A DNA stretch of 64,000 nt, taken from the NCBI GenBank assembly GCA_963725155.1, contig CAVRXU010000005.1, positions 642,330-706,329 of the forward strand, written 5' to 3'. Numbering within the stretch: the stretch's first letter is position 1; each line of letters opens with the position of its first letter. Positions 6,964-47,063 of this stretch are shown here, piece by piece. The position numbers were made by a program, and so were the translations under genes. This DNA is from an uncultured Microthrixaceae bacterium (GTDB lineage: Bacteria; Actinomycetota; Acidimicrobiia; Acidimicrobiales; DATDAH01). The notes under the pieces are model-generated. The model worked only from the letters and a program-made list of their open reading frames with translations. It was not told the origin of the DNA and did no database searches.

Positions 6964-7559
6964 TCGGGCTCGTCACCGGCTCGCCACTTGATGCTGCAGC
7001 CGATGCTGGGGACCTGGTCCTCGGCCACGGTGCCCCCGGCGAGCAGCGCCTCGACCGCGGCGACGACGTCGGCGCCGGTCACCGGCAGGCCGTTGCCGGG
7101 ACGGGAGTCGTCGAACTGGCCCCGGTAGGCCAGACGTTGCTCGCCGTCGAACACGAAGAAGTCCGGGGTGCAGGCGGCACGGAAGGCCTTGGCCACGTCC
7201 TGGGAGGCGTCGAGCAGGTAGGGGAACCGGAAGCCGTGGGTCACGGCCTGGGCGGCCATGCCCGCGGGGCCGTCCTGGGGATAGGCCTCGACGGCGTTGC
7301 TCTGCACGGCCACAACGGCGGCGCCCCGGTTCATGAGGTCGGCGGTGACCTCACCGAGGCGAGCCTCCACATGCTTGACGTAGGGGCAGTGCGGGCACAG
7401 GAACGCCACCACCAGGGCCGGGGCGCCGACGGCGTCCTCGGTCGACCAGGTGGTGGCGTCGGGGCCCGAGAGCGTGAACGGCGGCAGGGTCGAGCCGAGC
7501 GGGAGCATCGTGGACGGGGTGGCGACCATGGGTCCTCCAGGGTCGGTGAGGCGGGACAA
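6951..7559 (-). CDS. Thioredoxin-fold thiol-disulfide oxidoreductase / peroxiredoxin-like protein
   Basis: CxxC in FLCPHCPYVKH. AhpC/TSA-like layout. 202 aa. Confidence 0.75.
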   Translation of the reverse strand: MSRLTDPGGPMVATPSTMLPLGSTLPPFTLSGPDATTWSTEDAVGAPALVVAFLCPHCPYVKHVEARLGEVTADLMNRGAAVVAVQSNAVEAYPQDGPAGMAAQAVTHGFRFPYLLDASQDVAKAFRAACTPDFFVFDGEQRLAYRGQFDDSRPGNGLPVTGADVVAAVEALLAGGTVAEDQVPSIGCSIKWRAGDEPDYVG

Positions 7560-7599
7560 ACGCGGCGGCGACGGTGGGGCGAGCGCCTACCGTGCCGCT

Positions 7600-8364
7600 G
7601 TGACTCCAGGTCTACCCCCCGAGGCCGAGGCCCACTACCGGGGCTACGACGAGGACGCTCGCCTCGACCACCACTGGCTCGAGCGGGTACGCACCCAGAT
7701 GCTGCTGGAGCGGCTCCTGCCCGATGCCCCCGCCGACGTCCTGGATGTGGGCGGCGGCACCGGTGTCCACTCGATCTGGCTGGCCGGGCAGGGCCATCGG
7801 GTCACCCTGGTCGACGCCATGCCCGAACACGTCGACCAGGCATTGACCATCGGTACCTTCGCCGCCATTGTCGGCGACGCCCGGGCCCTCGACCAGGCCG
7901 ACGCCTCGGCCGACGCCGTGCTCCTGCTGGGGCCGCTCTACCACCTCGTCGAGGCTGCCGACCGCGCCCGCGCTCTGGCGGAGGCTCACCGGGTGCTCCG
8001 TCCCGGCGGCGTGCTCGTTGCCGGGGCAATCAGCTATGCCGCGTCGCTCCTGGACGGCGTCCGGGAGGGTTGGATGGACGTCCCGGCGTTCGTCGAGATC
8101 GTTCGGGCGGACCTGGCGACCGGCCAGCACCGGAACCCGGTCGCGGATCCCCGCTGGTTCACCACCACCTTCTTCCACCGGCCGGAGGAGCTGCGGGCGG
8201 AGTTGTCCGAGGCCGGTTTCGCCGTCGACGATGTCGTCGGGGTCGAGGGGCCGGGCTGGATCGTGGGGGAGCCCGAGGGTTCGCTCGTGGCGGCCGAGCT
8301 GGCCGACGCCCATCCCGAGCTGGCGCTGCTGAGCGCCCACCTCGTCGCGGTCGGGCGCCGTTGA
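7600..8364 (+). CDS. Class I SAM-dependent methyltransferase
   Basis: Motif I VLDVGGGTGVHS; LLLGPLYHL post-I region. The start is ambiguous. The track ORF opens at 7450, there is an ATG at 7528, and GTG 7600 avoids overlap with the divergent gene. Confidence 0.75.
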   Translation: MTPGLPPEAEAHYRGYDEDARLDHHWLERVRTQMLLERLLPDAPADVLDVGGGTGVHSIWLAGQGHRVTLVDAMPEHVDQALTIGTFAAIVGDARALDQADASADAVLLLGPLYHLVEAADRARALAEAHRVLRPGGVLVAGAISYAASLLDGVREGWMDVPAFVEIVRADLATGQHRNPVADPRWFTTTFFHRPEELRAELSEAGFAVDDVVGVEGPGWIVGEPEGSLVAAELADAHPELALLSAHLVAVGRR

Positions 8365-8696
8365 TGGCGGACTGGGTGGAGGTGGCGGCCGAGGTCGCCC
8401 CCGGTGAGATCGTGGACGCCGCCCACGGCGACCTGGACCTCGTCGTCTGGCGGACCTTCGAGGGCGAGCCGTGTGTCATGGAGGCCCGCTGTCCCCACGA
8501 GTGGTCCCACCTCGGTGCCGAAGGGGTCGTCGACGGTCCCGAGATCGTCTGCGCGGCCCACTTCTGGCGCTTCACCACCGAGGGGACGGGCAGCAAGGTC
8601 GGCATGACCGGCCGCCGGGACCCGAAGGCCGACATCGCCGTGTTCCCGTGCCGGGACGTCGACGGCCACATCGAGGCTGAGCTCCCCAGCGAGTAG
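8364..8696 (+). CDS. Rieske [2Fe-2S] domain protein
   Basis: CPHEWSH ... CAAHFWRF gives CxH-x(n)-CxxH. 110 aa. ATGA overlap with the methyltransferase stop. Confidence 0.8.
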   Translation: MADWVEVAAEVAPGEIVDAAHGDLDLVVWRTFEGEPCVMEARCPHEWSHLGAEGVVDGPEIVCAAHFWRFTTEGTGSKVGMTGRRDPKADIAVFPCRDVDGHIEAELPSE

Positions 8697-8707
8697 AACG
8701 AACGCCG

Positions 8708-9625
8708 ATGACCGAACTGGACGGCACCCGCATCCTGATCACCGGCCCGACGGGCCAGGTCGGCCTGCCCGTGGCTCTCGCGCTGGCCGAGAGGAACGAC
8801 GTGATCGGCGTGGCCCGCTTCGGCGACACCCGGGCCCGGGAGCGGCTGGAGGCGGCGGGGGTGACCTGCATCACCGCCGACCTCGTCAGCGGTGATCTCT
8901 CCGCCGTGCCCGCCGATGTCGACCACGTCGCCAACTTCGCCGTCGCCAAGACCGGCGACTTCGAGAAGGACCTGGCCGCCAACGTCGAGGCCCTCGGGAT
9001 GCTGATGCACCACTGCCGAGGGGCCACGTCCTTCCTGCACTGCTCGTCCACGGCGGTGTACGAGCCCGCCGGCCATCACGACTTCGCCGAGGGCGACCCG
9101 CTGGGGGACAACCACCGCCCGTTCGGCTTCCTGCCCACCTACTCGATCACCAAGATCGCGGCGGAGGCCATGGCCCGCTACGGCGCCCGCCAGTGGGACC
9201 TGCCCACCACCATCGCCCGCCTCTCGGTGCCTTACGGCGACAACGGCGGCTGGCCCGCCTTCCACTTCGAGATGATGCTGGCCGGCCAGGCCGTGCCCGT
9301 CCACGAGGACGCGCCCAGCGAGTTCAACCCGATCCACGAAGACGACATCGTGGCCCAGGTCCCTCGCCTGCTGGAGGTGGCCTCGGTGCCGGCCACCGTC
9401 GTCAACTGGGCCGGCCCCGACCCGGTCAGCATCGAGGACTGGTGCCTGTACCTGGGCGAGATGGTCGGGATCATGCCCACCTTCGCCCCGACCACGGCGA
9501 CCATCGAGAGCGTGCGGGTGGACACGACCCGCATGCACGAGCTGATCGGTCCGGCCGAGGTGCGGTGGAGGGAAGGCCTGCGCCGGATGGTCGAGGTCCG
9601 TCGTCCCGACCTGTTCGTCGATTGA
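8708..9625 (+). CDS. NAD-dependent epimerase/dehydratase family protein
   Basis: N-terminal Rossmann ILITGPTGQVG. 305 aa extended-SDR layout. Confidence 0.8.
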   Translation: MTELDGTRILITGPTGQVGLPVALALAERNDVIGVARFGDTRARERLEAAGVTCITADLVSGDLSAVPADVDHVANFAVAKTGDFEKDLAANVEALGMLMHHCRGATSFLHCSSTAVYEPAGHHDFAEGDPLGDNHRPFGFLPTYSITKIAAEAMARYGARQWDLPTTIARLSVPYGDNGGWPAFHFEMMLAGQAVPVHEDAPSEFNPIHEDDIVAQVPRLLEVASVPATVVNWAGPDPVSIEDWCLYLGEMVGIMPTFAPTTATIESVRVDTTRMHELIGPAEVRWREGLRRMVEVRRPDLFVD

Positions 9626-19832: not shown

Positions 19833-19845
19833 GCTCGAGCGCTCT

Positions 19846-20213
19846 TGGAGCTGGAGGGAATCGAACCCTCGTCCGCGAAGTGCGAGACGTACGCGCTACG
19901 ACCATTCCCGAGCTACGGCTTACGGCCGCCGAGAGGTCGGGTCCTCATGACCGCCGGGTCTTTCCCCGGTGTCAGTGGTCTTTCCCACCGTCAGCGGTCT
20001 CTCCCTGCGGTCCTCCACTGCTTCTGTTGCCGGGCTGCAGTGGACAGGCCCCGCGTGCCCTTGCGGGTCGCTGTGACTCTCTACCTACTGACTAGGTCAG
20101 GCGGCGAGAGCGAAGTCGCCTTCGGCGCTTCTTTGGGTGCCCCGTTTTAGGAGTCTGAGCAACTCCGGTCGCACACACGCCTGACGGTCTCCACGTCGAA
20201 ACCGATCAGCCCC
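19846..20213 (-). ncRNA. ssrA: tmRNA (SsrA)
   Basis: The reverse strand reads GGGGCTGATCGGTTTCGACG at the 5' end and GGGTTCGATTCCCTCCAGCTCCA at the 3' end. This gives a tRNA-Ala-like acceptor with a G3:U70 pair; CCA is not encoded. An internal tag frame ends ...EGDFALAA-TGA (20097..20141). smpB is nearby. Confidence 0.93.
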
Positions 20214-20290: not shown

Positions 20291-20518
20291 TCAGCCGACC
20301 CAGTTCCCGGGCTGGCTGGCCTGGTTGGGGTCCTGCTTGGGCTCGACCGCCTTTGCCATCCAGAACGAGAAGGCGGCGGCGACGATCCAGCACACCCCCA
20401 TGATGAGGAACGTCGGCCCGACCAGGGACGACATGGTGAAGGACAGGCCGATGAACATGAGGCCCGCGATCCCGAAGATCAGGGCCTTGCCCTTCATGAA
20501 GCCACCCATGTAGATCAT
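20291..20518 (-). CDS. Small two-TM membrane protein (75 aa), hypothetical
   Basis: AAGGAG lies 6 nt before ATG 20518. Two hydrophobic helices (ALIFGIAGLMFIGLSF; FLIMGVCWIVAAAFSFW). Located between smpB and ssrA. Confidence 0.55.
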   Translation of the reverse strand: MIYMGGFMKGKALIFGIAGLMFIGLSFTMSSLVGPTFLIMGVCWIVAAAFSFWMAKAVEPKQDPNQASQPGNWVG

Positions 20519-20601
20519 TGCGTTCTCCTTGTCGCCGCGGCGTGGTGCGGTAGGAGGTGAACCTACGACGGGCCAAGGTGGCGGTCCTGAGTAGGCGCTA
20601 C

Positions 20602-21087
20602 TCAATCTTGGGGGCGGCGCCGGGCCCGGGCCACCTCGCGCTGGGCTTCTCGCTCGGCGTCGCGGGTGGCGATGTGGTGGCGCTTGTCGACTCCGGTGCG
20701 ACCCTTGCCCAGGCCCAGTTCCAGCTTGGCCCGGCCGTCCTTGAAGTAGAGCGCGAGGGGCACCAGGGTCAGGCGGTCCTGGTCGAGGCGGGCCTTGATC
20801 TTGTCGATCTCGCGGCGGTGCAGCAGGAGCTTGCGATCCCGTTCCGGGTTCGCGTCGCCGAAGGTGTCAGCCGCGTGGCTGTACGGCGTGATGTGCAGTC
20901 CGATCACCCACGCCTCGTGGTCGATGATGCGGGCGTAGGCGTCGCTCACGGTGACCTTTGCCTCCCGCAGCGACTTCACCTCACTGCCGCTCAGCACGAG
21001 GCCGGCCTCGAAGGTGTCGAGGATCTCGAAGTTGCGTCGGGCCTGGCGGTTGCTCGCCACGACCTTGACGCCGTCAGGGCGGGCCAT
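20602..21087 (-). CDS. smpB: SsrA-binding protein SmpB
   Basis: 161 aa. NRQARRNFEIL, SGSEVKSLR, LLLHRREI, and a basic C-terminal tail. Confidence 0.95.
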   Translation of the reverse strand: MARPDGVKVVASNRQARRNFEILDTFEAGLVLSGSEVKSLREAKVTVSDAYARIIDHEAWVIGLHITPYSHAADTFGDANPERDRKLLLHRREIDKIKARLDQDRLTLVPLALYFKDGRAKLELGLGKGRTGVDKRHHIATRDAEREAQREVARARRRPQD

Positions 21088-21117
21088 GGCGGCCAGTCAA
21101 GCGCGGGAACGGAAGGA

Positions 21118-21624
21118 TCAGGCCTCGAGGTCGGAGGCGCCACCCGTGGCCCACCAGGACGCGGTGAGGCGCAAGCCCTCGATGGAGGCCCGAGGAAAGA
21201 TCTCCTCGTAGGTCCGCTTGTAGCCCGTGCGCTCGATCTTCCACTCGCCGGCGACCTTGCGGTAGTCGTCCTCGTAGAAGGCGGCGCCCTGGATCGTGAC
21301 GCCGTACGCCGTCTCCACGACGGTGTCCTCGAGGGCCCAGGTGCCGTGTGCCGTGTCCGGGCCGGTGAGTCGGATCTCGGGATGGTGCATCCGGTGTGAG
21401 GACAGGAAGGTCTCGGCCTTCATGGCGTCGCTGATCCAGCCCACGATGGCGTCCCGCCCTTCGTGGCGGTACTTGCCGGCCGAGTACTCGGCCACGGCAT
21501 CCTCGGTCAGCAGGTCGCCCATCTCGTCCCAGAGCTTTTGGTCCAGGCAGCGGGCGTAGCGGTACTTGACCTGCTTGATGGCCTCGATCTCGACCAGGTC
21601 TTCAGGGGTCAGGGGTTTCGTCAT
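21118..21624 (-). CDS. NTF2-like / SnoaL-like fold protein
   Basis: 168 aa. IKQVKYRYARCLDQKLWDEMGDLLTEDA is typical of SnoaL_4-type proteins. Confidence 0.75.
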   Translation of the reverse strand: MTKPLTPEDLVEIEAIKQVKYRYARCLDQKLWDEMGDLLTEDAVAEYSAGKYRHEGRDAIVGWISDAMKAETFLSSHRMHHPEIRLTGPDTAHGTWALEDTVVETAYGVTIQGAAFYEDDYRKVAGEWKIERTGYKRTYEEIFPRASIEGLRLTASWWATGGASDLEA

Positions 21625-21658
21625 CGCCGCGGACAGTACCGGTACGATCCGCGCCGCC

Positions 21659-22078
21659 GTGACGAGTGACGCCTTGAACCTCGACCGTGGGCCATGGCGC
21701 CAGATGCTGGCCCACGCCTACGACGGGCTGCCGCTGGAGGCCTGTGGGCTGCTGGCCGGTCCGCTCGGCCGGGGCGACATCACCGTCTTCTACCCCTGCC
21801 GCAACGCCGAGGCGTCCAGCCGCATCTACACGGTGCACCCCCAGGACCACCTGCGGGCCGACCGGGACGCCGAGGACAGGGGGCTGGCCATCGTGGGGGT
21901 GATGCACAGTCACACCCACACCGAGGCCTACCCGTCGCCCACCGACGTGGCCCAGGCCCCCGACCCCGACTGGCACTACATCATCGTCTCCCTGCGTCAG
22001 CCCGAGCCCGTGCTGCGCTCGTACCGGATAGCCGACGGGAACATCGCCGAGGAGCCGGTGGTTCTGATCGACCGGTAG
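21659..22078 (+). CDS. mec: JAMM/MPN+ metalloprotease (Mec-like)
   Basis: EACGLL and the JAMM motif HSHTHTEAYPSPTD. Immediately upstream of cysM as in M. tuberculosis. GTG 21659 is the proposed start; the track ORF opens at 21566. Confidence 0.8.
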   Translation: MTSDALNLDRGPWRQMLAHAYDGLPLEACGLLAGPLGRGDITVFYPCRNAEASSRIYTVHPQDHLRADRDAEDRGLAIVGVMHSHTHTEAYPSPTDVAQAPDPDWHYIIVSLRQPEPVLRSYRIADGNIAEEPVVLIDR

Positions 22079-22122
22079 ATTCCCTACCTGTTCGGTCAAC
22101 AATCGAGGGGGTGGAGCGCAGA

Positions 22123-23073
22123 ATGACGGTGCACGCGTCGATCCTGGACCTGATCGGGAACACCCCGATGGTCGACCTGAGCTCGTTCAGCCCCACACCG
22201 GGCGTGCGCATCATCGGCAAGCTCGAGGGACAGAACCCGGGCGGATCGGTCAAGGACCGCATCGCCAAGAAGATGATCGAAGAGGCGGAGGCGGACGGGA
22301 CGCTCACCCCCGGGAAGACGATCATGGAGCCGTCGTCGGGCAACACGGGCATCGCCCTGGCCATGATCGGCAGGATCAAGGGCTACCCGGTCAAGATCGT
22401 GCTGCCGGGAAACGTCTCGCCCGAGCGCCGCCAGTTGCTCGAAGCCTTCGGGGCCGAGATCATCGACTCGCCGGCTGAGGAAGGCTCCAACGGCGCGGTG
22501 CGTCGGGCCGAGGCCCTGGCCGCCGACCACCCCGAGTGGGCGTTCCTCTACCAGTACGGCAACGAGGCCAACCCGCGGGCCCACTACGAGGGCACGGGCC
22601 CGGAGATCTGGGCCGACTGCCCGGAGATCACCCACTTCGTCGCCGGCCTCGGCACCAGCGGCACGCTGCTCGGCGTCGGCACCTTCCTGAAGGAGCAGAA
22701 CCCGGCGATCCAGGTCTTCGCCGTCGAGCCCCCGCTCGGCGAGACCGTCCAGGGCCTGCGCAACATGGACGAGGGCTACATCCCACCGGTGTACGAGAAG
22801 TGGGGTGGCCAGGACCTGCTCGACGGGAAGCGCATCGTCCGACCGCGGGAATCACTCGAGTACACCCGTCGCCTGGCCCACGAGGCCGGGATCTTCGCCG
22901 GCATCTCCTCCGGGGCGGCGCTGGCGGGAGCCGTCCGGGTGGCCGAGCGCATCGACGAGGGCGTGATCGTCGTCATCGTGTGCGACGGTGGCTGGAAGTA
23001 CCTGTCCACCGGGGCCTGGACCGACGACCTCGATGTGGTCGCCGAACGGGTCGAGCGGGTGATCTACTTCTGA
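22123..23073 (+). CDS. cysM: Cysteine synthase, CysM-type (PLP-dependent)
   Basis: PLP-lysine GGSVKDRIA, SSGNTGIALA, and a C-terminal DGGWKYLSTGAW like mycobacterial CysM. 316 aa. Confidence 0.9.
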   Translation: MTVHASILDLIGNTPMVDLSSFSPTPGVRIIGKLEGQNPGGSVKDRIAKKMIEEAEADGTLTPGKTIMEPSSGNTGIALAMIGRIKGYPVKIVLPGNVSPERRQLLEAFGAEIIDSPAEEGSNGAVRRAEALAADHPEWAFLYQYGNEANPRAHYEGTGPEIWADCPEITHFVAGLGTSGTLLGVGTFLKEQNPAIQVFAVEPPLGETVQGLRNMDEGYIPPVYEKWGGQDLLDGKRIVRPRESLEYTRRLAHEAGIFAGISSGAALAGAVRVAERIDEGVIVVIVCDGGWKYLSTGAWTDDLDVVAERVERVIYF

Positions 23074-23076
23074 GCC

Positions 23077-24288
23077 GTGCCCGTTCCCTTCCCGACTGAC
23101 GCCGAGGCCGACCGGTCCCGACCCACCAAGGAGGAGGCCTGGCTCAACGCCCGGGCCTTCGCCAGCGCGGCCGCACCGGCCGACGGCCTCACCCGGTTGC
23201 AGGGCTTCGCCCTCCGGGGCCTGACCCAGGCCCTGACCGCCGATCTCCTCGAGCTGGGCGACCTCTCGCTCCTCGAGCCCATCACCCCTGAGGCGTACGC
23301 CGAGGTCAACGCTCGGCGGGAGAAGGGCTACCGGATCCGCCGGGTGCAGACGATGGTGTTGCTCGAGCTGCTCCTGCGGCCACTGCCCGACGACGTGGCG
23401 GCCCGGGTGGAGGCCTTCGCCGACGCGCTGGGCGTCGGCGACGACTGCCGGGACGTGGTCGCCGCGACCCGGCACCTGGCGGCGGGCGCGACCGACATCG
23501 CCCTGGCCGATTTCATGCGCAACGGCTACGAGGTGCTGCACCTCGAACGGGCGGGGGAGGAGCCCCCGGAGGATGTCAGCGCCTACTGGGCCCCGGCGCA
23601 CGACGACCCCGGGTTGGCCGCCCGCTGGGACGCCATGCGGGACGGCTCGCCCACCTCGCTCGGCCGGTGCGTCTGGGAGTTCTACAAGGGTCGGGGGTTC
23701 AACTTCCCCGGGACCCCCAACAGCGTCCCGCCCCGCCTGGCCCAGCACGACTTCGTCCACGTGCTCGCCGACTACGGCACGACCGTCGAGTCCGAGATCG
23801 AGGTGTTCGCCCTGATCGCCCGGGCCGATGAGGACCCGCGCTCGTTCAGCCTGCTCGTCGCCGTCCTCGCCCTGTTCGAAGGTGGGTACCTGGAGCGGGG
23901 CCTGGGCGCCTTCCGGGCCGACCCGGGCCACTTGAGTCACGACTCGTCGGGTATGGGCGTGCGCCTTGGTGACGCCATCGCCCGTGGCGGCGAGGTGGCG
24001 TGGCGGTTCCACGAGCAGGCGGGGATCGACCTCTTGGCCGTCGACTGGCACGACCGGGCCCACGAGGGCATCGACGATCTGCGCCGCGAATTCGGCTTCG
24101 ACGGGCCCGGGGCCAAGTCCCTGGAGGCCAAAGCGGCCGGGTCGGCCGGCCCCTTCCAACCCGGCGGCGTCACCGTCGCCCAGCTCCAGTGGGGCCGGGA
24201 CATGGCCCAGGCCGAGGGACGGGAGTACGACGCCTTCGGAGCATCGCTGTCGACCGATCGGTCCGAGCCACCCGAGGGCGCGGATTGA
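23077..24288 (+). CDS. Hypothetical protein, paralogue 1, with COQ4-like HDxxH-x11-E motif
   Basis: 403 aa. Starts 4 nt after the cysM stop. AQHDFVHVLADYGTTVESEIEVF at 23746..23796. Clear paralogue of the next gene. Coding status is confident; the family call is tentative. Confidence 0.6.
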   Translation: MPVPFPTDAEADRSRPTKEEAWLNARAFASAAAPADGLTRLQGFALRGLTQALTADLLELGDLSLLEPITPEAYAEVNARREKGYRIRRVQTMVLLELLLRPLPDDVAARVEAFADALGVGDDCRDVVAATRHLAAGATDIALADFMRNGYEVLHLERAGEEPPEDVSAYWAPAHDDPGLAARWDAMRDGSPTSLGRCVWEFYKGRGFNFPGTPNSVPPRLAQHDFVHVLADYGTTVESEIEVFALIARADEDPRSFSLLVAVLALFEGGYLERGLGAFRADPGHLSHDSSGMGVRLGDAIARGGEVAWRFHEQAGIDLLAVDWHDRAHEGIDDLRREFGFDGPGAKSLEAKAAGSAGPFQPGGVTVAQLQWGRDMAQAEGREYDAFGASLSTDRSEPPEGAD

Positions 24289-25472
24289 TGCCGGTCCCGT
24301 TCCCCGACGACGCCGAGGTCAACCTCGACCCGCCTGAGCCGCCGGAGATCCTCCACATCGCCCGCGGTGTCATGACCGCCGTCGCCCCACCGGAGGGGCT
24401 CACCCGGATGCAGACCCTCTGCTTTCGGTCCCTGTCCGACGCCATGACCGGGCATCCGCTCGACCTGGCTGCCGTCACGCCCATCTCGGCCGAGGACTAC
24501 GCCCGCGGCCTGGCTCGACGCGACCGGGCCTTCCGGGTCCGCATGGTCCAGATGATGATCGTCCTGGCGCTGCTCCTGCGCCGGGTGCCGCGTGAGGTGG
24601 CCGCCCGCCTCCAGGAGTTCGCCGACGAGCTGAGTGTCGGCGAGGACTGCCGGGACCTGTTGAACGCCACCCGCCACTTGGCGGCCGGCGCGCTCGGCCT
24701 GGCCATGGCCGACTTCGAGCGCAACGGCTACGAGACGATGGCCTATGAGCGGTCGGGGGACGGGGCCGAGCACACCGCGGCCGAGTACTGGGCCGCGGCC
24801 CCCAACGACCCGGAGTTGGCGGCTCGGTGGCAGGGCCTCGAGCGGTGCGCCGCCGCCACCCTGGGCCGTCGGATGTGGGAGTTCTACCGGGCCCGGGGCT
24901 TCGCCTTCCCGGGCACCCCGGGGAGTGCCCCGCCGGCGCTGGCCCAGCACGACTGGATCCACGTCATCGGCGACTACGGCACGACGGTCGAGTCCGAGCT
25001 CGAGGTGTTCGGTCTCATCGCTCGGGCGTCCGACGATCCCCGCGCCTTCACCCTGCTCATCCAGGTGCTGGGGCTCTTCGAGTCCGGCTACCTGCAGGCG
25101 GGCATGGGGCTGTTCCAGATGGACGTCGGCCACCTGTCGGCCGACGAGGAGGCAATGGCCCTGCGCCTCGCCGACGCCTTCCGCCGCGGGGCCCGGGCGG
25201 CGTGGTCCTACAACGACGCCAACGGCACGGACACCGGCATCGATCTCTTGGCCGAGGACTGGTTCGCTCACGCCGACCAGACCCTCGACGAGGTCCGGGC
25301 CACCTTCTTCCTCGACGGTCTGGCAGCCAAGTCCGACGAGGCGGTGGCGGTCGGGTCGGTCGGGCCGTGGGAGGCGGGCGGCATCTCCCCGTACCAGGCG
25401 CAGGCGGGGCGGGACCGGGCTGAGGCCGAAGGTCGACCGTACGAGGCCTACGGGGCGACACCGGTTCTTTAG
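24288..25472 (+). CDS. Hypothetical protein, paralogue 2, with COQ4-like HDxxH-x11-E motif
   Basis: 394 aa. ATGA overlap with paralogue 1. AQHDWIHVIGDYGTTVESELEVF at 24948..24998. Same MPVPFP-DAE N-terminus. Confidence 0.6.
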   Translation: MPVPFPDDAEVNLDPPEPPEILHIARGVMTAVAPPEGLTRMQTLCFRSLSDAMTGHPLDLAAVTPISAEDYARGLARRDRAFRVRMVQMMIVLALLLRRVPREVAARLQEFADELSVGEDCRDLLNATRHLAAGALGLAMADFERNGYETMAYERSGDGAEHTAAEYWAAAPNDPELAARWQGLERCAAATLGRRMWEFYRARGFAFPGTPGSAPPALAQHDWIHVIGDYGTTVESELEVFGLIARASDDPRAFTLLIQVLGLFESGYLQAGMGLFQMDVGHLSADEEAMALRLADAFRRGARAAWSYNDANGTDTGIDLLAEDWFAHADQTLDEVRATFFLDGLAAKSDEAVAVGSVGPWEAGGISPYQAQAGRDRAEAEGRPYEAYGATPVL

Positions 25473-25552
25473 GAGCCGAGCCGAAGGCGAGGCGAGTCAA
25501 CCGGGCGCCGCGACCACGCTGAGGTGTTCGTCGAGGTTCCTAGGCTGCTGCG

Positions 25553-26359
25553 GTGCAGGATCGGCCGATCGGGATGTTCGACAGCGGCTTCGGTGGCCTG
25601 ACCGTCGCCCGGGCCACGATCGACCTCCTGCCCGCTGAGGATCTCGTCTACGTCGGCGACACCGGGCGTTACCCGTACGGGCCTCGGTCCCAGGACGAGG
25701 TCGCGGGCTTCGCCGAGCAGATCACCAAGCGCCTGGTGGCCGAGCACGACGTGAAGCTGGTCGTGGTGGCCTGCAACACCGCCGCCGCCGCGGCCCTGGC
25801 CCGGTTGCAAGCCGACACCCCGGTGCCGGTCATCGGGGTCATCGAGCCCGGCGCCCGGTCCCTGGTGAGTGCCACCCGCAACGGCCGCGTGGGTGTGATC
25901 GGCACCGTGGGCACGATCCGCTCGGGCGCGTATCAGCGGGCCGTGGCCGACACCGGGGCCACGGTCGACCCGGTGTTCGCGGCATGCCCTGGGTTCGTCG
26001 AGTTCGTGGAGCGGGGCGAGGCCGACAGCGACCAGGTCCACGTGCTGGCCGAACGCCTCCTCGCCCCGGTCCGGGACCATGGCGTCGACACGCTCCTGCT
26101 CGGCTGCACCCACTACCCGTACCTCGCCCGGACCCTGTCCGACGTGATGGGCCGGGAGGTCGTGCTCGTCTCCTCGGCCGACGAGACGGCGTTCGCCGTT
26201 TCCCGGGTGTTGGCGGAGCTGGACCTCCGGAGGGACGATGCGGAGCGGATCGGCTCGCACCGGTTCGTGTCGTCGGGCGACGTCGGCTCCTTCGCCCGGC
26301 TCGGCCAGCGCCTCCTGGGTCCCGAACTGGTCGACGCCGAGGGGATCACGTGGGATTGA
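25553..26359 (+). CDS. murI: Glutamate racemase
   Basis: [24 protein letters not shown] (the two catalytic Cys contexts). Confidence 0.93.
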
Positions 26360-27087
26360 CCCTCACCGTCCTGGGCTCTGGCGGGACCTACGCCGGGCCG
26401 GACAACGCCTGCAGCGGCTACCTGCTGCGCACGGCGACGACGGCCGTCCTCGTCGACCTCGGTTCCGGTGCGCTGGCCAACGCCCAGCGCCACATCGACT
26501 TGATCGATGTCGACGCCGTCGTGTTGACCCACGAGCACCCGGACCACTGGCTCGACCTGCCCGTGGCCCGCAACGTCTACCGCTACGTCCTCGACCGCAA
26601 CGGCGTCCCGGTGTTCACGACGGCCGGCACCCGGGCCCTGGCGGTGCCGTTCTGCGACGACGCCACCTTCGCGTGGACGATCGTCGCCGACGGCGACCGG
26701 GCGAAGGTCGGCGACATCGACCTCCGCTTCAGTCGCACCGACCACCCCGTCGAGACCTTGGCCGTCCTCGCCGCGGCCGAGGGTGCTTCGCTCGTCTACT
26801 CCTCGGACACCGGGCCGGGCTGGTCGCCGGCGGCCTTCGCCGTTCGCCCGGACCTGGCGCTGCTCGAGGCCACGTTCGGGCGCGGCCACGGGCTCCCCGT
26901 CCACCTGACCGCGTCCGAGGCGGGGGAGCGGGCCGCCGAGGTCGGGGCCCGTCACCTGGTCCTCACCCACCTCCTCCCGGGGACGGATCCGGCCCGCCAG
27001 AAGGCCGAGGCGGAGGAGGCCTTCGGAGGTCCCGTCACGGTGGCCGAGCCGGGCCTCACCTTCACGGTCGAGGCCGAGCGGCGGTAG
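26350..27087 (+). CDS. MBL-fold metallo-hydrolase (same position as M. tuberculosis Rv1339)
   Basis: [11 protein letters not shown] (HxHxDH). GTG 26350 overlaps the murI end. Sits between murI and rph. Confidence 0.8.
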
Positions 27088-27098
27088 ACACTGCGGCC

Positions 27099-27851
27099 AT
27101 GAGCAACTCTTCGCCCTCGCCCCGCGCCGACGGGCGCCTTCCCGACGAGCTCCGCCCCGTCTCCTTCGAGCGGGACTTCACCGACATGTCGGCCGGGTCG
27201 GTCCTGGTCACCTTCGGCCGGACCCGGGTGCTGTGCACGGCCTCGATCGAGGACGACGTGCCCCGCTGGATGCGCGGCAGCGGCAAGGGGTGGGTGACCG
27301 CTGAGTATTCGATGCTGCCCGGCTCCTCCCCCGAACGGATCCGCCGCGAGGTCAAGGACGGCAAGCCCTCGGGCCGGACCCAGGAGATCCAGCGCCTGAT
27401 CGGGCGGTCGCTGCGATCGGTCTGCGACATGGTCGTGCTGGGGGAGCGGTCGATCATGGTCGACTGCGACGTGCTCCAGGCCGACGGGGGCACCCGCACG
27501 GCGTCCATCTCCGGGGGCTACGTGGCGCTCCACGACGCCCTGAGCCGTCTCGTGGCCAAGGGCGAGCTGGCCGAGCACCCGCTGATCGAGAACTGCGCCG
27601 CGGTGTCGGTGGGCATCGTCGAGGGCCGACCCCTCCTGGACCTCCCGTACGTCGAGGACTCGACGGCCGAGGTCGACATGAACGTCGTGATGACCGCCAG
27701 CGGGCGCTTCGTCGAGGTCCAGGGGACGGCCGAGGGGCTGGCCTTCAGCCGGGGCGAGTTGGACGAGCTGCTGGACCTGGCCACCGGGGGCATCAACCAG
27801 ATCGTGACCCTCCAGAACGAGGCCGTGGCCTCACCCCCTGCGCCTCGGTGA
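27099..27851 (+). CDS. rph: Ribonuclease PH
   Basis: [38 protein letters not shown]. 250 aa. Confidence 0.95.
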
Positions 27852-28474
27852 GCCTGGTCCTCGTCCTCGCCTCGGCCAACCCCGACAAGGTGGCCGAGAT
27901 CGCCGCCATCCTCGGCGACGACATCGACCTCCGGCCCCGTCCGGCCGGGCTGGCCGACGTGGTCGAGGACGGCGACACGCTCGAGGCCAACGCCCGGCTG
28001 AAGGCCGTCGCGGTGGGCGCCGCAGCCGGCGCCGCGGCCGTGGCCGACGACACCGGCCTCGAGGTCGACGCCCTGGGCGGGGCGCCGGGCGTCCACACGG
28101 CCCGCTTCGCCGGTGAGGACGCCACCTACGCCGACAACGTGGCCAAGATGCTGGCCGACCTCGCCGGCGTGCCCGAGGCGGAGCGGGGCGCCCGCTTCCG
28201 CACCGTCGCCTTGGCCCGCTTCCCCGACGGATCCGAGGTGCTGGCCGAGGGAGTGGTCGAGGGGATGATCAGCCCCGAAGCCCGTGGCGAACGGGGCTTC
28301 GGCTACGACCCGCTGTTCGTCCCCGCCGACGGCGACGGGCGCACGTTCGCCCAGATGACCGCGGACGAGAAGCACGCCATCTCCCACCGCGGCCGCGCCT
28401 TCCGCGCCCTCGCCCAGTTGCTCGCCGCTCGTTCTGGGACCGGATCAGGACCCCAGGACGGGAGTCACCAGTGA
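27848..28474 (+). CDS. rdgB: Non-canonical purine NTP pyrophosphatase (RdgB/HAM1)
   Basis: [27 protein letters not shown]. 4-nt overlap with rph. Confidence 0.92.
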
Positions 28475-29454
28475 CGGAGGTCGATGGGCCACTCATCGAC
28501 GACCTCGTCGCCGCGCACGAGGTGGAAGCGCTCATGAAGGGCGATGGTCGGGTCACAGTGGGCGGGGGTCACCCCGATGCGTTCACCGACGGTCGGTGTC
28601 CACCCCTCGTGGGGGATGAAGGCGATGTGCTCGTCGGAGCAGTAGAGGACATCGGCGCCGTCGACGGTGGGGTCGCCGTGGTCCATGGCCAATGACTTGA
28701 TTCCGGCGTCGGCCACGGCGGCGCCGGGGCTGGTGGAGATCACCGTGGCGGCGACCGTGATCGCCTGGCGGAATGGGAGTCCCAGAGCCGTGTAGGCCGT
28801 GTCCATGACCAGGTAGCTGCCGGCCTGGAGCTCGGTGACGGTGTCGTTCAGGTCCCAGGAGCCGGTGCCGCCGCCGGAGACGACGTCGCCGCCGACCTGG
28901 TCGTGTGCCGTCCGCGCTCGGGCCATCGCCCCCTCGACGAGCTGCGCTCGGACGGCGCGATCGGCGTTGAGCACGGCGTGGGCCTCGTAGGCCATGACGC
29001 CGCGGACCGCGAGCCCGGCCCCTCGGGCCCGGTCGGCCAGACGACCGGCGTCGGCCGGGTCACAACCGCAGCGGAAGCCCACGTTGACGTCGATCAGGAC
29101 CTCGGACACACCCCCGCTCGCGGCCGCGTCCACCGTTTCCTCGGAGTCCACGGCCACCGTGATGCGGTGGCCGTCGTCCGCCAGGACGCCCAGTCGGGTG
29201 GCGTCGACGATCTCGTTGGCCAGCAGGAGGTCGGTCCCCAGCCCGGCGCCCGCCAGGCCCTCCATCTCCCGGATCGTGGCGCAGCAGAAGCTGGTGTGGC
29301 CGGCCACGGCCAGTTCGCGGGCGAGCGCGGTCGACTTGAAGCACTTGGCGTGGGGCCGCAGCGCCGTACCGGGCCAGCGGCCGGCCATGGTGTCGACGTT
29401 GTGCCCGAGCGCGTCGACGTCCAGCAGCAACGCCGGTGTGGGGAGCTCCGCCAC
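28465..29454 (-). CDS. Alanine-racemase-fold PLP enzyme (DSD1 / D-threonine aldolase-like)
   Basis: LPTPALLLD..., PLP-lysine context RPHAKCFKS, and a C-terminal beta domain. I prefer GTG 29454 (G-rich SD upstream). The track ORF extension to 29574 overlaps the divergent gene. Confidence 0.75.
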   Translation of the reverse strand: MAELPTPALLLDVDALGHNVDTMAGRWPGTALRPHAKCFKSTALARELAVAGHTSFCCATIREMEGLAGAGLGTDLLLANEIVDATRLGVLADDGHRITVAVDSEETVDAAASGGVSEVLIDVNVGFRCGCDPADAGRLADRARGAGLAVRGVMAYEAHAVLNADRAVRAQLVEGAMARARTAHDQVGGDVVSGGGTGSWDLNDTVTELQAGSYLVMDTAYTALGLPFRQAITVAATVISTSPGAAVADAGIKSLAMDHGDPTVDGADVLYCSDEHIAFIPHEGWTPTVGERIGVTPAHCDPTIALHERFHLVRGDEVVDEWPIDLRHW

Positions 29455-29485
29455 CTGCACCCCCTGCAACCTACGCTGCCGCGTC

Positions 29486-32400
29486 GTGGACGTAAGCCGG
29501 GTCGCGTCGGTGCTCGTCGTCGACCTCGTCGGCTCGACCGAACGCCTGGTCGCGCTCGGGGACGAGAAGGGCAACCGAGATCAGGTCGGGGTGCTCGCCG
29601 CGTTCTCCACCGCGATCACCGACGCCGGGGGCCGAGTGATCAAGGACATGGGCGACGGGGTGCTGGCGGTCTTCGACAGCGTGCGCCACGCCGTCGCCGC
29701 CGCGATCGAGTTGCAACGGGCGACCGCAGGCTTGCCGGCAGTGGGTGACCGCCCGGCCCAGGCTCGGGTCGGCGTCTCGGTGGGCGAGGTCGGCCTCCGA
29801 GGGGATGACCTCGTCGGGCTGCCGGTGGTCGAGGCCGCTCGACTCTGCAGCACCGCCTCCGCGGGCCAGGTCCTGGTCAGCGACGTCGTGGTGGTGCTCG
29901 GTCGCCTGGAGGTCCCGACGCAGTCGGTCGGATCGCTCGCGTTGAAGGGCCTCCCCGAGCCGGTCGCGGTTTCGGAGGTCCTCTGGGAGCCGCGGCTCAC
30001 CCCGTCCCCGGTCCCCGCCGGCCTCCTCGGCAACGGCCTGCCGTTCAGCGGTCGGCTGGAGCCCCTCACGCGTCTGCGCCAGGCCTGGGAGGCCGCCGGC
30101 GCCGGCGGTGGTGTCCTCGTGCTGGTCTCCGGCGAGCCGGGCGTCGGCAAGACCCGCCTGCTGGCGACGCTGGCGGAGGAGATCCAAGGCGACGGGGCGC
30201 TGGTCGTGTACGGGCGCTGTGATGAACTGTCCGCGCTCACGTACCAACCTTTCGTCGAGGCCGTACGCGGGCTGTTGGATGCCGCCGCGTTGGATCCGAT
30301 TCCGGAAGGCCTTCGCTGGCTCCTGCCCGAGTTGGCCTCGGGAGGCGACGGTGGTGGTGATCTGGGACGAGCCCAAGTCGAGCTCCTCGACGGGGTGGTT
30401 GCCGCGGTGCGGGGTGCTGCGACGGCCCAGCCGCTGCTGCTCGTCCTCGACGACCTGCACTGGGCCTCGGCGCCGACCCTGGCGGTGCTCCTCCACCTCC
30501 TGGGAGCGGTGGAGGACGTACCGGTCCTCGTGGCCGGTACCTACCGGGACACCGACGTCGATCGCCGGCATCCCCTGGGCGTGGCGTTGGCGGACATGCA
30601 TCGCTTCGACCCGGTCCGGGTCGCCCTGGCCGGCCTCGACGACGACGAGGTGGTCGAGTTCGTGCGGGCTGCGGCCGGCCACGAGCTCGAAGACGGCCGG
30701 GAGCTGGCCCGCGCGGTCCGCCAGGCGACCGGTGGCAACCCCTTCTTCATCGGTGAGCTCCTGGCCTGCCTGGTGGAGCAGGGGGCGCTCGAACAGAGCG
30801 ACGAGCGATGGCGCCTGGCTGGTGACCTGGCCGACCTCGGGCTGCCGGAAGGCATCCGCGACGTGCTCGGTCGGCGACTCTCCCAGCTCCCCGACGGAGC
30901 CGACGACGTCCTGGCCGTCGCCGCCGTGATCGGCCGGGCGTTCGACGCCCGCCTTCTCGACGAGGTCAGCGATCGAGGGATCGACGAGGTCCTTGACGCC
31001 GTGGAGGCCGCGGTCACGGCCCGGCTCGTGATCGAGGAGCCCGACCGGCCCGGCGCCTTCGCGTTTGCCCATGCACTGGTCAGACAGGTGCTCCTGGAGG
31101 AGCTCTCGCTCATGAAGCGGGCCCGAGTCCACGAGCGGGTCGGTGACGCCTTGGCCGCAGGGGCAGCCCGGGATCCGGTGCGGTTGCGTTCGGCGGCACT
31201 CCACCTCCTCGAGGCGGCGCCGTTCGACACCCTTCCCCGGGCCCTCGCCCTCGTCCGCCAGGCCGAGGAGGCCACGGTTCGCCCCGTTCCCGCGGAGACG
31301 TCGGCCATGGTCAGGGCCGTGAGCCGGGCCGTGCAGGACAGCGATCTGCCTCCGTCGGAGGACCTGGCCAGGGTGTTCGTCGACGGGGCGATCGCCGAGT
31401 TCATGTGCGGGAACCGCGATGCGGTGGCCCACTATGCGCAACGAGCCGTTGATGTCGCCCGGGCGGCCGGGGCCGACGCCGCCTTCGCCGCGGCCGTGGC
31501 CGTCGGCGGACAGGCGACCGGCTTCGGGCTGGACGTGCAGTTCCTCCCGCTGATCCCTGAGGCCTTGTCGCGGGTCGACGCCGACGCCCCCGAGCGACTG
31601 GCCCTCCTGGCGCAGGCTCACCTGGCGGCCTGCTTCTTCGCCGACGGGACGGATCCGGTCGCCCGCACGGAGGCGCTCGTGACCGAGCTGGAGTCGTCGC
31701 GCTCCCAGGGACCGGTCGTCGGGTTGACAGCCAACACCCGGGCGATGGCCTGGTGGATGGCGCCGTGGGGTTACCTGGCCGTCGCCGACCTGGACCGGCA
31801 GACGGAGCTGGTCGGCCGGGCGGTGCAGTACTCGACCGAGCTCGGCCGGGGCGGACCGGAGCACCTGGCCGGGGCGTACGCCGCGTTCCGGCGGGGGGAC
31901 CGGAAGGGCGTGGCTGATCACATCGTCGGCCTGGCCAACGGGGACGTCAGCCGGGACATCCCGCTCTACCTGGCCGCGGGGGCCCAGAACGAGGCCACGC
32001 TGGCGATGTTCGAAGGACGGCTCGAGGACGCCCCCGGGCTGATCGACCGGGTGGCGGAGGCCGTGCCCGGAGAGCCGATGTTCCTGGCCGGGGTGGCCTG
32101 CCAGCGAGCCTGGTTGGCTTACGTCGGCGGGCGGTTCGGAGACGCCGTGTCCGCCGGCGACGAGATGGCGGCGCTCCTGCCGTTCCCCCGCCTGGTCGCC
32201 GCGACCCGAGGATTGTTCGCCCATGCGGCGGGTGACGACGTGTCATCCCGGAGCTTCTTCGACCAGGCCTGGCTCGACGGCGTCGAGTCGATCGGTCGCG
32301 ACTGGTGCTGGGTCGGCACGGTCCACGCCCTCGGTGAGTTGGCGGCGGCGCTCGAGGATCGCGAGCGGGGGGCCGAGGTCGAGGAGGCGCTGCTGTCGTT

Positions 32401-32596
32401 CCGGGGCCAGTTCGTCATGGCGGCGTGCACGTACGTGTCGGGGTCGGTGGACGCCACCCTCGGTCGCCTGGCCCGACTCCGGGGTGACGAGGTCGAAGCC
32501 CGTCGTCGGTTGGAGGCCGCGCTCGACCTCGAAGAAGGATCCGGCGCCGTCCTGTTCGCCGAGCAGACGCGGCGGGAGCTCGCGACCGAGGGATAG
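29486..32596 (+). CDS. Class III cyclase-homology domain + STAND P-loop NTPase + TPR-like C-terminal region
   Basis: Cyclase segments: VLVVDLVGSTE, IKDMGDGVLAVF, GLPVVEAARL. Walker A LVSGEPGVGKTRL. Walker B LLLVLDDLHWA. A long helical C-terminus with no recognisable HTH. The first 164 codons of the track ORF are antisense to the neighbouring gene and were dropped. Confidence 0.8.
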   Translation: MDVSRVASVLVVDLVGSTERLVALGDEKGNRDQVGVLAAFSTAITDAGGRVIKDMGDGVLAVFDSVRHAVAAAIELQRATAGLPAVGDRPAQARVGVSVGEVGLRGDDLVGLPVVEAARLCSTASAGQVLVSDVVVVLGRLEVPTQSVGSLALKGLPEPVAVSEVLWEPRLTPSPVPAGLLGNGLPFSGRLEPLTRLRQAWEAAGAGGGVLVLVSGEPGVGKTRLLATLAEEIQGDGALVVYGRCDELSALTYQPFVEAVRGLLDAAALDPIPEGLRWLLPELASGGDGGGDLGRAQVELLDGVVAAVRGAATAQPLLLVLDDLHWASAPTLAVLLHLLGAVEDVPVLVAGTYRDTDVDRRHPLGVALADMHRFDPVRVALAGLDDDEVVEFVRAAAGHELEDGRELARAVRQATGGNPFFIGELLACLVEQGALEQSDERWRLAGDLADLGLPEGIRDVLGRRLSQLPDGADDVLAVAAVIGRAFDARLLDEVSDRGIDEVLDAVEAAVTARLVIEEPDRPGAFAFAHALVRQVLLEELSLMKRARVHERVGDALAAGAARDPVRLRSAALHLLEAAPFDTLPRALALVRQAEEATVRPVPAETSAMVRAVSRAVQDSDLPPSEDLARVFVDGAIAEFMCGNRDAVAHYAQRAVDVARAAGADAAFAAAVAVGGQATGFGLDVQFLPLIPEALSRVDADAPERLALLAQAHLAACFFADGTDPVARTEALVTELESSRSQGPVVGLTANTRAMAWWMAPWGYLAVADLDRQTELVGRAVQYSTELGRGGPEHLAGAYAAFRRGDRKGVADHIVGLANGDVSRDIPLYLAAGAQNEATLAMFEGRLEDAPGLIDRVAEAVPGEPMFLAGVACQRAWLAYVGGRFGDAVSAGDEMAALLPFPRLVAATRGLFAHAAGDDVSSRSFFDQAWLDGVESIGRDWCWVGTVHALGELAAALEDRERGAEVEEALLSFRGQFVMAACTYVSGSVDATLGRLARLRGDEVEARRRLEAALDLEEGSGAVLFAEQTRRELATEG

Positions 32597-32609: not shown

Positions 32610-32694
32610 TGCGGGCGAGAGGACTCGAACCTCCAAGGGGCAGGGCCCCACCGGGACCTAAACCCGGCGCGTCTTCCAGTTCCGCCACGCCCGC
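32610..32694 (-). tRNA. tRNA-Leu (anticodon TAG)
   Basis: The reverse strand folds by eye: acceptor GCGGGCG/CGCCCGC, anticodon stem CCGGG/CCCGG with loop TTTAGGT, long variable arm, GGTTCGAGTCC T-loop. CCA is not encoded. Confidence 0.9.
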
Positions 32695-45025: not shown

Positions 45026-45100
45026 TGGTGGGCCCCCTGGGATTCGAACCCAGAACCTGCGGCTTAAGAGGCCGTTGCTCTGCCGTTGAGCTAGAGGCCC
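45026..45100 (-). tRNA. tRNA-Lys (anticodon CTT)
   Basis: The reverse strand reads GGGCCTCTAGCTCAACGGCAGAGCAACGGCCTCTTAAGCCGCAGGTTCTGGGTTCGAATCCCAGGGGGCCCACCA. Anticodon loop CTCTTAA. CCA is encoded. Confidence 0.9.
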
Positions 45101-45160
45101 GACGCCCGGGGAGGGTAGCGGTCGGCACGGAACCGCCCGCCAACCTCCCGGACTTCGGTA

Positions 45161-45239
45161 TGGGGTGACCGAGGGGACTTGAACCCCCGACCTCCAGGGC
45201 CACAACCTGGCGCTCTAACCGAGCTGAGCTACGGCCACC
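45161..45239 (-). tRNA. tRNA-His (anticodon GTG)
   Basis: An encoded G-1 is opposite discriminator C. Anticodon stem CCAGG/CCTGG with loop TTGTGGC. T-loop GGTTCAAGTCC. CCA is encoded. Confidence 0.9.
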
Positions 45240-45300
45240 AAGAGCCGCTCAGCATAGGGGCAGCCCGGCCGACTGCCCCAGGGATAGCGTCACGTGGTCC

Positions 45301-45378
45301 GCCCCCGTAGCTCAGTCCGGACAGAGCAGCGGGCTTCTATCCCGAGGGCCGCAGGTTCGAATCCTGCCGGGGGCGCCA
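45301..45378 (+). tRNA. tRNA-Arg (anticodon TCT)
   Basis: Acceptor GCCCCCG/CGGGGGC, anticodon loop CTTCTAT, T-arm GCAGGTTCGAATCCTGC. CCA is encoded. There is one mismatch at the top of the anticodon stem. Confidence 0.88.
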
Positions 45379-45570
45379 CACACGCGGGGCGTGAACGATC
45401 GGCCCAGCCGGCTCGTCTCACCCCGTGTGACCTACGACGGGCGGTTCCGGCGACGGCGGCGTGACCTCGACGACGGGCCGCCCTGCCTGCCCCTGGCCCC
45501 GGGCGAGCTCTCCAACGGCGAGTTCATCCCCCGACCGCCGACGGCTGGAGACCGGGCCGTCGCCCGGGCG

Positions 45571-46980: not shown

Positions 46981-46988
46981 CCGACGGT

Positions 46989-47062
46989 TGGAGCGGGTGA
47001 GGGGAATCGAACCCCCGTCACCAGGATGGAAGCCTGGCGCTCTGCCATTGAGCTACACCCGC
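46989..47062 (-). tRNA. tRNA-Gly (anticodon TCC)
   Basis: The reverse strand reads GCGGGTGTAGCTCAATGGCAGAGCGCCAGGCTTCCATCCTGG...GGTTCGATTCCCCTCACCCGCTCCA. CCA is encoded. Confidence 0.9.
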
Positions 47063-47063
47063 G

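Follow-up and report, generated by a model that had tools for sequence, protein, structure and literature searches.

We describe a pair of adjacent genes, here called X1 and X2, in a 64,000-nucleotide (nt) stretch of DNA from an uncultured Microthrixaceae bacterium (contig CAVRXU010000005.1; hereafter the window), where they lie between a gene for cysteine synthase (cysM) and one for glutamate racemase (murI). We read them, with a probability of roughly 0.6, as lineage-specific paralogues in an unnamed Coq4-like family, whose products are predicted divalent-metal enzymes and whose position next to cysM is not functional. The evidence comes from sequence, profile and structure comparisons with Coq4, from a putative metal-ligand motif and from a survey of genomic neighbourhoods.

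Two tandem paralogues under purifying selection

BLASTP aligns X1 with X2 at 53% identity over 394 columns (E 4e-137), a similarity far beyond chance: the two are true tandem paralogues, as an initial annotation of the window had claimed, and both open with the motif MPVPFP.DAE that it had pointed out. They are the only two copies of the family in the window. X1 starts directly behind cysM, again as first described, with 3 nt separating the cysM stop codon (TGA, 23071-23073) from the GTG of X1. The junction between X1 and X2, however, is not the ATGA overlap that had been reported: it reads TGATG (24286-24290) and the two genes, which are in different reading frames, overlap by 1 nt. In the orthologous loci L002, L005 and L007 (loci are designated by L numbers throughout) they do not overlap, and a gap of ~8-11 nt lies between them.

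Orthologues of X1 are 72-92% identical to it, and those of X2 71-95%. The GC content at third codon positions is 0.93 in both genes, similar to that of cysM and murI. Measured against the orthologues in L001, L002 and L005, the ratio of non-synonymous to synonymous substitution rates (dN/dS) amounts to 0.13-0.29 for X1 and 0.11-0.23 for X2; the corresponding values are 0.06 for cysM and 0.11 for murI. X1 and X2 are both genuine genes under purifying selection.

Sequence and profile comparisons with Coq4

From the spacing HDxxH-x11-E, the initial annotation had proposed a relationship to COQ4. The Pfam model Coq4 (PF05019) matches X1 at 18.6 bits (E 1.2e-3), over the 21 residues 224-244 only, and gives no match on X2. 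Among the relatives, it is the only Pfam family found in more than one member: 29 of 48 match it at E ≤ 1, the best with E 7.7e-6, and one distant member of the family scores 22.7 bits. When the family profile was compared with the sequences of the PDB, 3msq_A alone was matched, in an alignment that runs LPEG(S/T)LG...ARGF...HDxxHV...E; a PDB search with a single sequence found nothing.

As a comparison set we used nine genes annotated as 'Coq4 family protein' (217-272 amino acids, aa) from cyanobacterial and Novosphingobium plasmids (L081-L089), obtained by tblastn against plasmids. This search replaced one in a large protein database with a 72-aa fragment of 3MSQ as query, which had returned four fragments only. 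Four of the nine proteins were checked against Pfam, and all four are over the Coq4 threshold. With this set, hhalign aligned the family profile at 92.5% probability (E 5e-7) over 133 columns, corresponding to residues 185-346 of X1. A more diverse family profile gave 96.2% (E 2e-9) over 195 columns, pairing residues 86-351 of X1 with 13-226 of 230 in Coq4; per-column confidence in this alignment is high only from X1 residue ~185 onward. The landmarks common to the family and Coq4 are LPxGSLG, a GF motif, HDxxH-x11-E and a C-terminal W..W...R..L.

Predicted structures

AlphaFold2 models of X1 (predicted local distance difference test, pLDDT, 89.5; predicted template modelling score, pTM, 0.90) and X2 (93.2 and 0.91) are all-helical. 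A comparison with COQ4 structures had been suggested from the outset, and with either model the three best matches of Foldseek in the PDB are the chains 3msq_A, 6e12_A and 6e12_B, with probabilities of 0.99-1.00, E 2e-3 to 4e-2 and template modelling scores on the target (TMt) of 0.46-0.51. For X1, 3msq is matched at probability 1.00, E 6.6e-3 and TMt 0.50; for X2, 3msq_A is matched at 1.00, E 2.2e-3 and TMt 0.51; 6e12 is found at 0.99-1.00 in both cases. All other full-length matches have probabilities of at most 0.07 with either model. 3MSQ is a Coq4-type protein from Nostoc punctiforme, and 6E12 is Alr8543.

The proposed relationship to COQ4 thus holds at the level of the superfamily, through hhalign (92-96%), Foldseek and the invariant motif described below, but not at that of the Pfam family, the threshold of which is not reached. 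Taken together, profiles and models support the view that the core of X1 and X2 is a remote homologue of Coq4 and not a coincidence of motifs.

A predicted metal-ligand motif

HDxxH-x11-E, already recognised in the initial annotation, is present in both proteins (Table 1). No change in its H, D, H or E occurs among 48 close relatives, 34 diverse representatives (27-54% identity) or the nine bacterial Coq4 proteins; the expectation that orthologues would keep these residues is therefore borne out down to 27% identity. Q42, W184, P211, G212, R303 and R336 are also invariant in the 34 representatives.

In human COQ4, the motif is needed for Zn binding and for function in complementation, and in E. 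coli COQ4 is able to take the place of UbiD and UbiH (10.1101/2023.11.13.566839). Reconstructed COQ4 catalyses a Zn-dependent C1 decarboxylation, and its H/H or D/E double mutants are inactive (PMC7615680).

A widespread family of Acidimicrobiia

A search of 5.8 billion proteins yielded 998 matches among the scored candidates; all the matches listed carry the source name 'hypothetical protein', and all their named organisms are Acidimicrobiia or Acidimicrobiales. In a profile search of 1.84 billion cluster representatives, at least 1390 were found at E ≤ 1e-3, of which 267 reach E ≤ 1e-30. Scanning one genome per species recovered at least 575 loci, nearly all from metagenome-assembled genomes (MAGs) of Acidimicrobiia; outside this class, the loci listed comprise one Nocardia genome and one Jatrophihabitantaceae MAG. 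No plasmid homologue of X2 was found. NCBIfam has no model that matches X1 or X2 and, as the absence of a named family had suggested, no curated Pfam or NCBIfam model covers either protein.

Family members are all-alpha proteins of ~330-400 aa. They have a family-specific N-terminal helical region of at least 85 aa, conserved among relatives, and an insertion relative to Coq4 around residues 125-165 of X1. The long forms, those of Acidimicrobiia, end in a conserved tail (X1 ~352-403) with the motif GSVGPWEPGGIS...GR..AEAEGRPY; distant members (322-352 aa) are without this tail. The N-terminal ~200 aa had at first been left without a recognisable family. This needs narrowing: the Coq4-like part probably begins at residue ~86, and confidently at ~185, whereas residues ~1-85 (up to 184) are indeed without assignment, as is the tail at ~352-403.

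For the N-terminal region of the X2 model (~24288-24700), Foldseek reports 2h5n (PG1108), which we take to be TerB-like, at probability 0.75-0.77 (TMt 0.57-0.59, rmsd 3.5-4.4 Å, ~105-113 columns). This structure is absent from the Foldseek rows listed for the X1 model, and it is not backed by the comparison of the N-terminal profile with PDB sequences, where other weak matches appear, e.g. 3nuf at E 3e-3. DUF533 matches one distant member only (residues 6-111, E 1.3e-3 to 6.6e-3), and in a Pfam scan of 31 N-terminal fragments it was found in just one. Internal duplication, tested by hhalign, received a probability of 0.2%.

Linkage to cysM is confined to close relatives

The pair had originally been tied to the sulfur-carrier cysteine pathway, and its linkage to mec and cysM was expected to persist among orthologues. 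We surveyed 80 of the at least 575 genome loci by tblastn of all window neighbours, with up to 7 kb of flank each. cysM adjoins a family gene in eight of them (L001-L008), with mec also present in L002-L008. The full block smpB-snoaL-mec-cysM-X1(-X2)-murI-MBL-rph-rdgB is found in L002, L003, L004 and L008, and parts of it in L001 and L005-L007. Among the loci surveyed, the closest relatives are these eight, with 68-92% identity to X1; the title of six of them gives Microthrixaceae, while L001 and L007 stand under broader names. In the remaining 72 loci, none of mec, cysM and murI lies within 7 kb, and the family gene is a single copy, closer to X2 (~45-54% identity); L024 and L041, also titled Microthrixaceae, are among them. 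Persistent linkage is thus absent, and with distant members unlinked and no cysO in the window, the tie to the cysteine pathway does not stand. Between the adjacent mec and cysM (21566-23073) there is no cysO, the gap being 44 nt without an open reading frame (ORF), and no plausible ThiS-like coding ORF ending in ...GG was found anywhere in the 64 kb.

In the loci that can be read cleanly (L001-L005, L007), the spacing between cysM and X1 is kept across a synonymous divergence (dS) of ~0.65. cysM, X1 and X2 are probably co-transcribed: tight spacing in a mixed block argues for co-transcription, not for a common pathway. Adjacency in this block carries little functional information, because it mixes cysteine synthesis, peptidoglycan, RNA processing and nucleotide sanitation. 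The position of X1-X2 between cysM and murI is an insertion into a conserved housekeeping block in one lineage, with no evidence for a part in cysteine synthesis.

Elsewhere in the family the surroundings vary. After clustering of all flanking ORFs from the 80 loci, the recurring neighbours have unrelated functions: ABC ATPase, PNPOx-like, WS/DGAT-like, patatin-like, kinase, MutY-like HhH-GPD, HxlR-SCP2 and glyoxalase/VOC. In L018, L038, L051 and L060 (Actinomycetota/Acidimicrobiaceae), the family gene is preceded on its own strand, at a distance of 33-42 nt, by a small gene of the VOC/glyoxalase fold, possibly a recurrent partner within one subclade; the distant member P0216 likewise has a Glyoxalase_6 gene 9 nt ahead of it (L098 5551-5991). 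Another distant member, P0245 (L097 5497-7059), is preceded by a 4HBT thioesterase gene, in a cluster with CoA ligase, thiolase, ChsH2-like proteins, SDRs, the beta subunit of a ring-hydroxylating dioxygenase and a MarR regulator, and P0199 (L090 618-4457) is flanked by Amidohydro_2 and TctC-type genes. The settings of P0245 and P0199 look like aromatic or lipid catabolism; the VOC, 4HBT and Amidohydro_2/TctC neighbours hint at small-molecule or aromatic metabolism, and are too few to serve as evidence. A further distant member stands among acyl-CoA carboxylase, MCM and SDH genes, and that of Nocardia (L063) has SDR and GT4 neighbours. None of the loci examined was seen to adjoin a gene for quinone biosynthesis (men, mqn, ubiA-type).

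History of the duplication

In a neighbour-joining tree, rooted at its midpoint and without support values, the X1 and X2 clades are sisters and stand apart from all other family members, which makes the duplication specific to the lineage of the window within Microthrixaceae. Tandem pairs occur in L001, L002 and L005-L008, and the X1 and X2 clades seem to be represented by one member each on several metagenomic contigs. Two Microthrixaceae MAGs, L003 and L004, have an X1-type gene without X2 between cysM and murI (7001-9100), and the proteins encoded are early branches within the X1 clade.

Mean identity to outgroup members is 53.3% for X2 and 47.5% for X1. At sites conserved elsewhere, X1 has nine clade-specific, mostly conservative substitutions, including W226F inside HDxxH, against zero in X2; all four ligand residues are kept in both. 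Judging from these comparisons, X2 appears to be the conservative, ancestral-like copy and X1 the diverged one. The pattern fits subfunctionalisation or a heteromeric pair.

Neighbouring genes in the window

The neighbours had been named correctly from the start: Pfam and NCBIfam confirm the Mec-like JAB protein, the CysK/CysM synthase, MurI, the MBL-fold protein, RNase PH and RdgB (Table 1). The last three (26356..28474) form the same-strand continuation of a conserved actinobacterial block, in an order that is the same in L002-L004 and L008 and partly so in L006. A gene for a SnoaL-like protein (Pfam/NCBIfam) is also near the pair, listed between those for SmpB and the Mec-like protein. A scan for promoter and terminator consensus sequences in 20500-29000 gave no match, and is uninformative at ~72% GC. 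The window shares its flanking order (JAB, CysM-type, MurI, MBL, RNase PH, RdgB) with the block of M. tuberculosis, which is presumably mec-cysO-cysM-rhomboid-murI-Rv1339-rph-rdgB; it differs in having X1-X2 in the cysM-murI slot and in lacking cysO.

Table 1. Features of the X1/X2 locus, in window coordinates.
Feature	Position (nt)	Strand	Description
X1	23077..24288	+	403 aa, GTG start, stop 24286-24288; apparently the diverged paralogue of the Coq4-like family
X2	24288..25472	+	394 aa, ATG start, stop 25470-25472; apparently the ancestral-like paralogue
X1 putative Coq4-like core, residues ~86-351	23332..24129	+	hhalign, Foldseek; confident part residues 185-346, nt 23629-24114
X2 putative Coq4-like core, residues ~182-347	24831..25328	+	mapped from X1 185-346 via the pairwise BLASTP alignment
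X1 predicted metal-ligand motif	23746..23796	+	H224-D225-x-x-H228-x11-E240; invariant in relatives; the lone stretch matched by Pfam Coq4
X2 predicted metal-ligand motif	24948..24998	+	H221-D222-x-x-H225-x11-E237; invariant alignment columns
JAB/MPN metalloprotease (Mec-like)	21671..22078	+	Pfam Prok-JAB E 1.4e-23; NCBIfam desampylase model 70 bits, under cutoff; start codon approximate
Pyridoxal phosphate (PLP)-dependent cysteine synthase, CysK/CysM subfamily (cysM)	22123..23073	+	Pfam PALP E 4e-70; TIGR01136 cysKM 336.5 bits vs cutoff 344
Glutamate racemase MurI	25553..26359	+	Pfam Asp_Glu_race; TIGR00067 217 bits, over cutoff; 80 nt 3' of X2
MBL-fold protein	26356-27087	+	Pfam
RNase PH	27099-27851	+	Pfam
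RdgB/Ham1	27848-28474	+	Pfam
SmpB	20602-21087	-	Pfam/NCBIfam

Several other features of the window were recorded on either side of the block. Just downstream of smpB there is a full-length gene for transfer-messenger RNA (tmRNA; 19845-20213, minus strand; Rfam RF00023, 78.2 bits, E 1.2e-28); between the two lies a 104-aa hydrophobic ORF (20291-20605, minus strand) with a 4-nt overlap with smpB. Beyond rdgB there is a very long ORF on the plus strand (29480-32596). Its product, of ~1040-1200 aa, contains an AAA_16 ATPase domain (E 8.7e-28) and resembles the large regulators of the LuxR/STAND type; the ORF is immediately followed by a single tRNA gene (32610-32694, minus strand). Five more tRNA genes are clustered at 45029-47140, on both strands.

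Discussion

We propose that each protein would bind a divalent metal, probably Zn2+, through its H, D, H and E residues. By analogy with COQ4, which removes the C1 carboxyl of prenylated hydroxybenzoate (PMC7615680), the metal could serve as the Lewis acid in a reaction of a carboxylic acid of hydrophobic or aromatic character, and the chemistry of the family is possibly decarboxylase-like. The N-terminal region and the tail may shape substrate access or oligomerisation, and X1 and X2 might either act on different substrates or form one heteromer. Acidimicrobiia are expected to use menaquinone, so that the substrate would not be the usual ubiquinone precursor. A more specific version, which we regard as tentative and rather doubtful, makes the family an undescribed Coq4-type branch that would carry out a metal-dependent transformation, e.g. 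decarboxylation, of a lipophilic aromatic acid, for instance in a non-UbiD route to isoprenoid quinones or aromatic lipids, with the Microthrixaceae duplicate as a specialised pair or heterodimer.

Several points weigh against our reading of X1 and X2 as Coq4-like metal enzymes placed next to cysM without functional connection. Neither protein reaches the Pfam gathering threshold for Coq4, 22.9 bits. The structural overlap is partial, with a template modelling score of ~0.5 when normalised to the target and ~0.28 when normalised to the query, and an rmsd of 10-12 Å over the whole Foldseek alignment. Metal binding, catalysis and the substrate are all features that we infer for the family; the midpoint rooting of the tree and its want of support values bear on the duplication history; and the clustering of flanking ORFs gave no common operon partner, the biggest neighbour cluster being present in 15 of the 80 loci. 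Finally, the tight spacing to cysM, kept among relatives, is compatible with local functional recruitment.

Such recruitment would go furthest if X1 and X2 were accessory parts of the Mec-CysO-CysM sulfur-carrier cysteine pathway, in one translationally coupled unit with mec-cysM. The 3-nt gap between cysM and X1, the 1-nt overlap between X1 and X2, the spacing to cysM maintained in L001-L005 and L007 at dS ~0.65 and the want of a terminator-like site in 20500-29000 (in a scan that is weak at this GC content) all agree with coupling. We nevertheless consider a cysteine role very unlikely: 72 of 80 loci, Microthrixaceae L024 and L041 included, are without mec, cysM and murI within 7 kb, distant members are not cys-linked, the window has no cysO, and the block holds murI, rph and rdgB as well, without a common pathway. 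A link to quinones fares little better in our estimation. X1 and X2 would then act on an isoprenoid-quinone precursor, e.g. a prenylated aromatic acid, as the counterpart of COQ4 in a non-ubiquinone pathway; this would suit the homology to COQ4, the invariance of all catalytic-motif residues and the very wide spread in one bacterial class, as for a core metabolic enzyme. It is unlikely, however, in view of the surroundings, where no men, mqn or ubiA-type gene was seen beside the examined loci. The menaquinone routes known to us need no such step or use UbiD/UbiX-type enzymes, which counts against it too. Moreover, most of the Coq4 homologues from cyanobacteria and Novosphingobium are accessory genes carried on plasmids. 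Among their neighbours in L081-L089 are TetR regulators, SDRs, P450 fragments and methyltransferases, and Novosphingobium pNL2 has two Coq4 genes in the vicinity of one for terpene utilisation (AtuA-type) and one for a TonB receptor. This suggests that bona fide bacterial Coq4 genes belong to accessory metabolism rather than to core quinone synthesis, and the plasmid location itself suggests that the bacterial superfamily is not tied to the latter.

X1 and X2 might also be non-catalytic, as scaffold or lipid-binding proteins with a structural metal site that form a heteromeric scaffold, in line with the first role suggested for yeast Coq4. Coq4 itself was earlier proposed to be an organiser of the coenzyme Q (CoQ) complex (10.1101/2023.11.13.566839), the fold is all-helical, and both paralogues have been retained, one of them faster-evolving, a pattern frequent among heteromeric partners. 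We hold this to be improbable, as COQ4 is now seen as catalytic, with the same motif required (10.1101/2023.11.13.566839; PMC7615680), and the strict invariance of the four ligands and of Q42, W184, P211, G212, R303 and R336 fits an active site. Most genomes are single-copy, which argues that a heteromer is not the ancestral state. A further objection is that the resemblance to COQ4 is a chance motif match and the family an unrelated helical protein. The Pfam match is indeed sub-threshold, with 21 residues in X1 and none in X2, and the Foldseek E values are modest (2e-3 to 4e-2) with a high rmsd. Chance is nonetheless hard to credit: the profile-profile alignment extends over 133-195 columns and includes several motifs beyond HDxxH-x11-E, and Coq4-type structures come first for both models at a probability of at least 0.99, other full-length matches staying at 0.07 or below.

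Our preferred reading, a Coq4-like family of predicted metal enzymes, is thus defined by what it shares with Coq4 (PF05019) and by where it departs from it. Shared are the all-helical core, LPxGSLG, GF, HDxxH-x11-E and the C-terminal W..W..pl.e.R; 3MSQ and 6E12 are the only confident structural neighbours of the X1 and X2 models, and the H, D, H and E invariant in the family are the residues that COQ4 needs for Zn-dependent decarboxylation. Single-domain Coq4, on the other hand, has ~220-270 aa, and X1 (403 aa) and X2 (394 aa) are 130-190 aa longer than the bacterial proteins. The family adds the N-terminal region, the 125-165 insertion and the C-terminal tail, stays under the Pfam threshold and shows no linkage to ubiquinone genes in the loci seen. 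Metal-dependent non-oxidative aromatic (de)carboxylases of the amidohydrolase superfamily have served as the mechanistic model for COQ4 (PMC7615680). Their likeness to X1 and X2 would lie in the proposed Lewis-acid chemistry of a divalent metal on an aromatic carboxylate, a mechanistic analogy only: they are TIM barrels, in contrast to the helical bundle of X1 and X2, and there is no similarity in sequence or structure.

The X1/X2 family is an unnamed, widespread and expanded branch of the Coq4 superfamily, with no evidence for a new kind of system. For annotation, this means that several hundred 'hypothetical proteins' can be relabelled 'Coq4-superfamily, HDxxH-x11-E metal-site protein', and that ubiquinone-biosynthesis or cysteine-pathway labels are to be avoided. 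The enzymatic nature of COQ4 was not recognised until 2023-2024, and debate continues over the mechanism, plain Zn-dependent decarboxylation being opposed to an O2-dependent oxidative one. A large family that is confidently folded in prediction, has kept the motif and lives in non-ubiquinone hosts is a possible experimental handle on Coq4 chemistry. It also points towards a reaction not yet assigned in Acidimicrobiia, relatives of the wastewater organism Microthrix among them. Should the family prove to be a Coq4-type branch of aromatic-acid enzymes, COQ4 chemistry would extend beyond ubiquinone and beyond eukaryotes.

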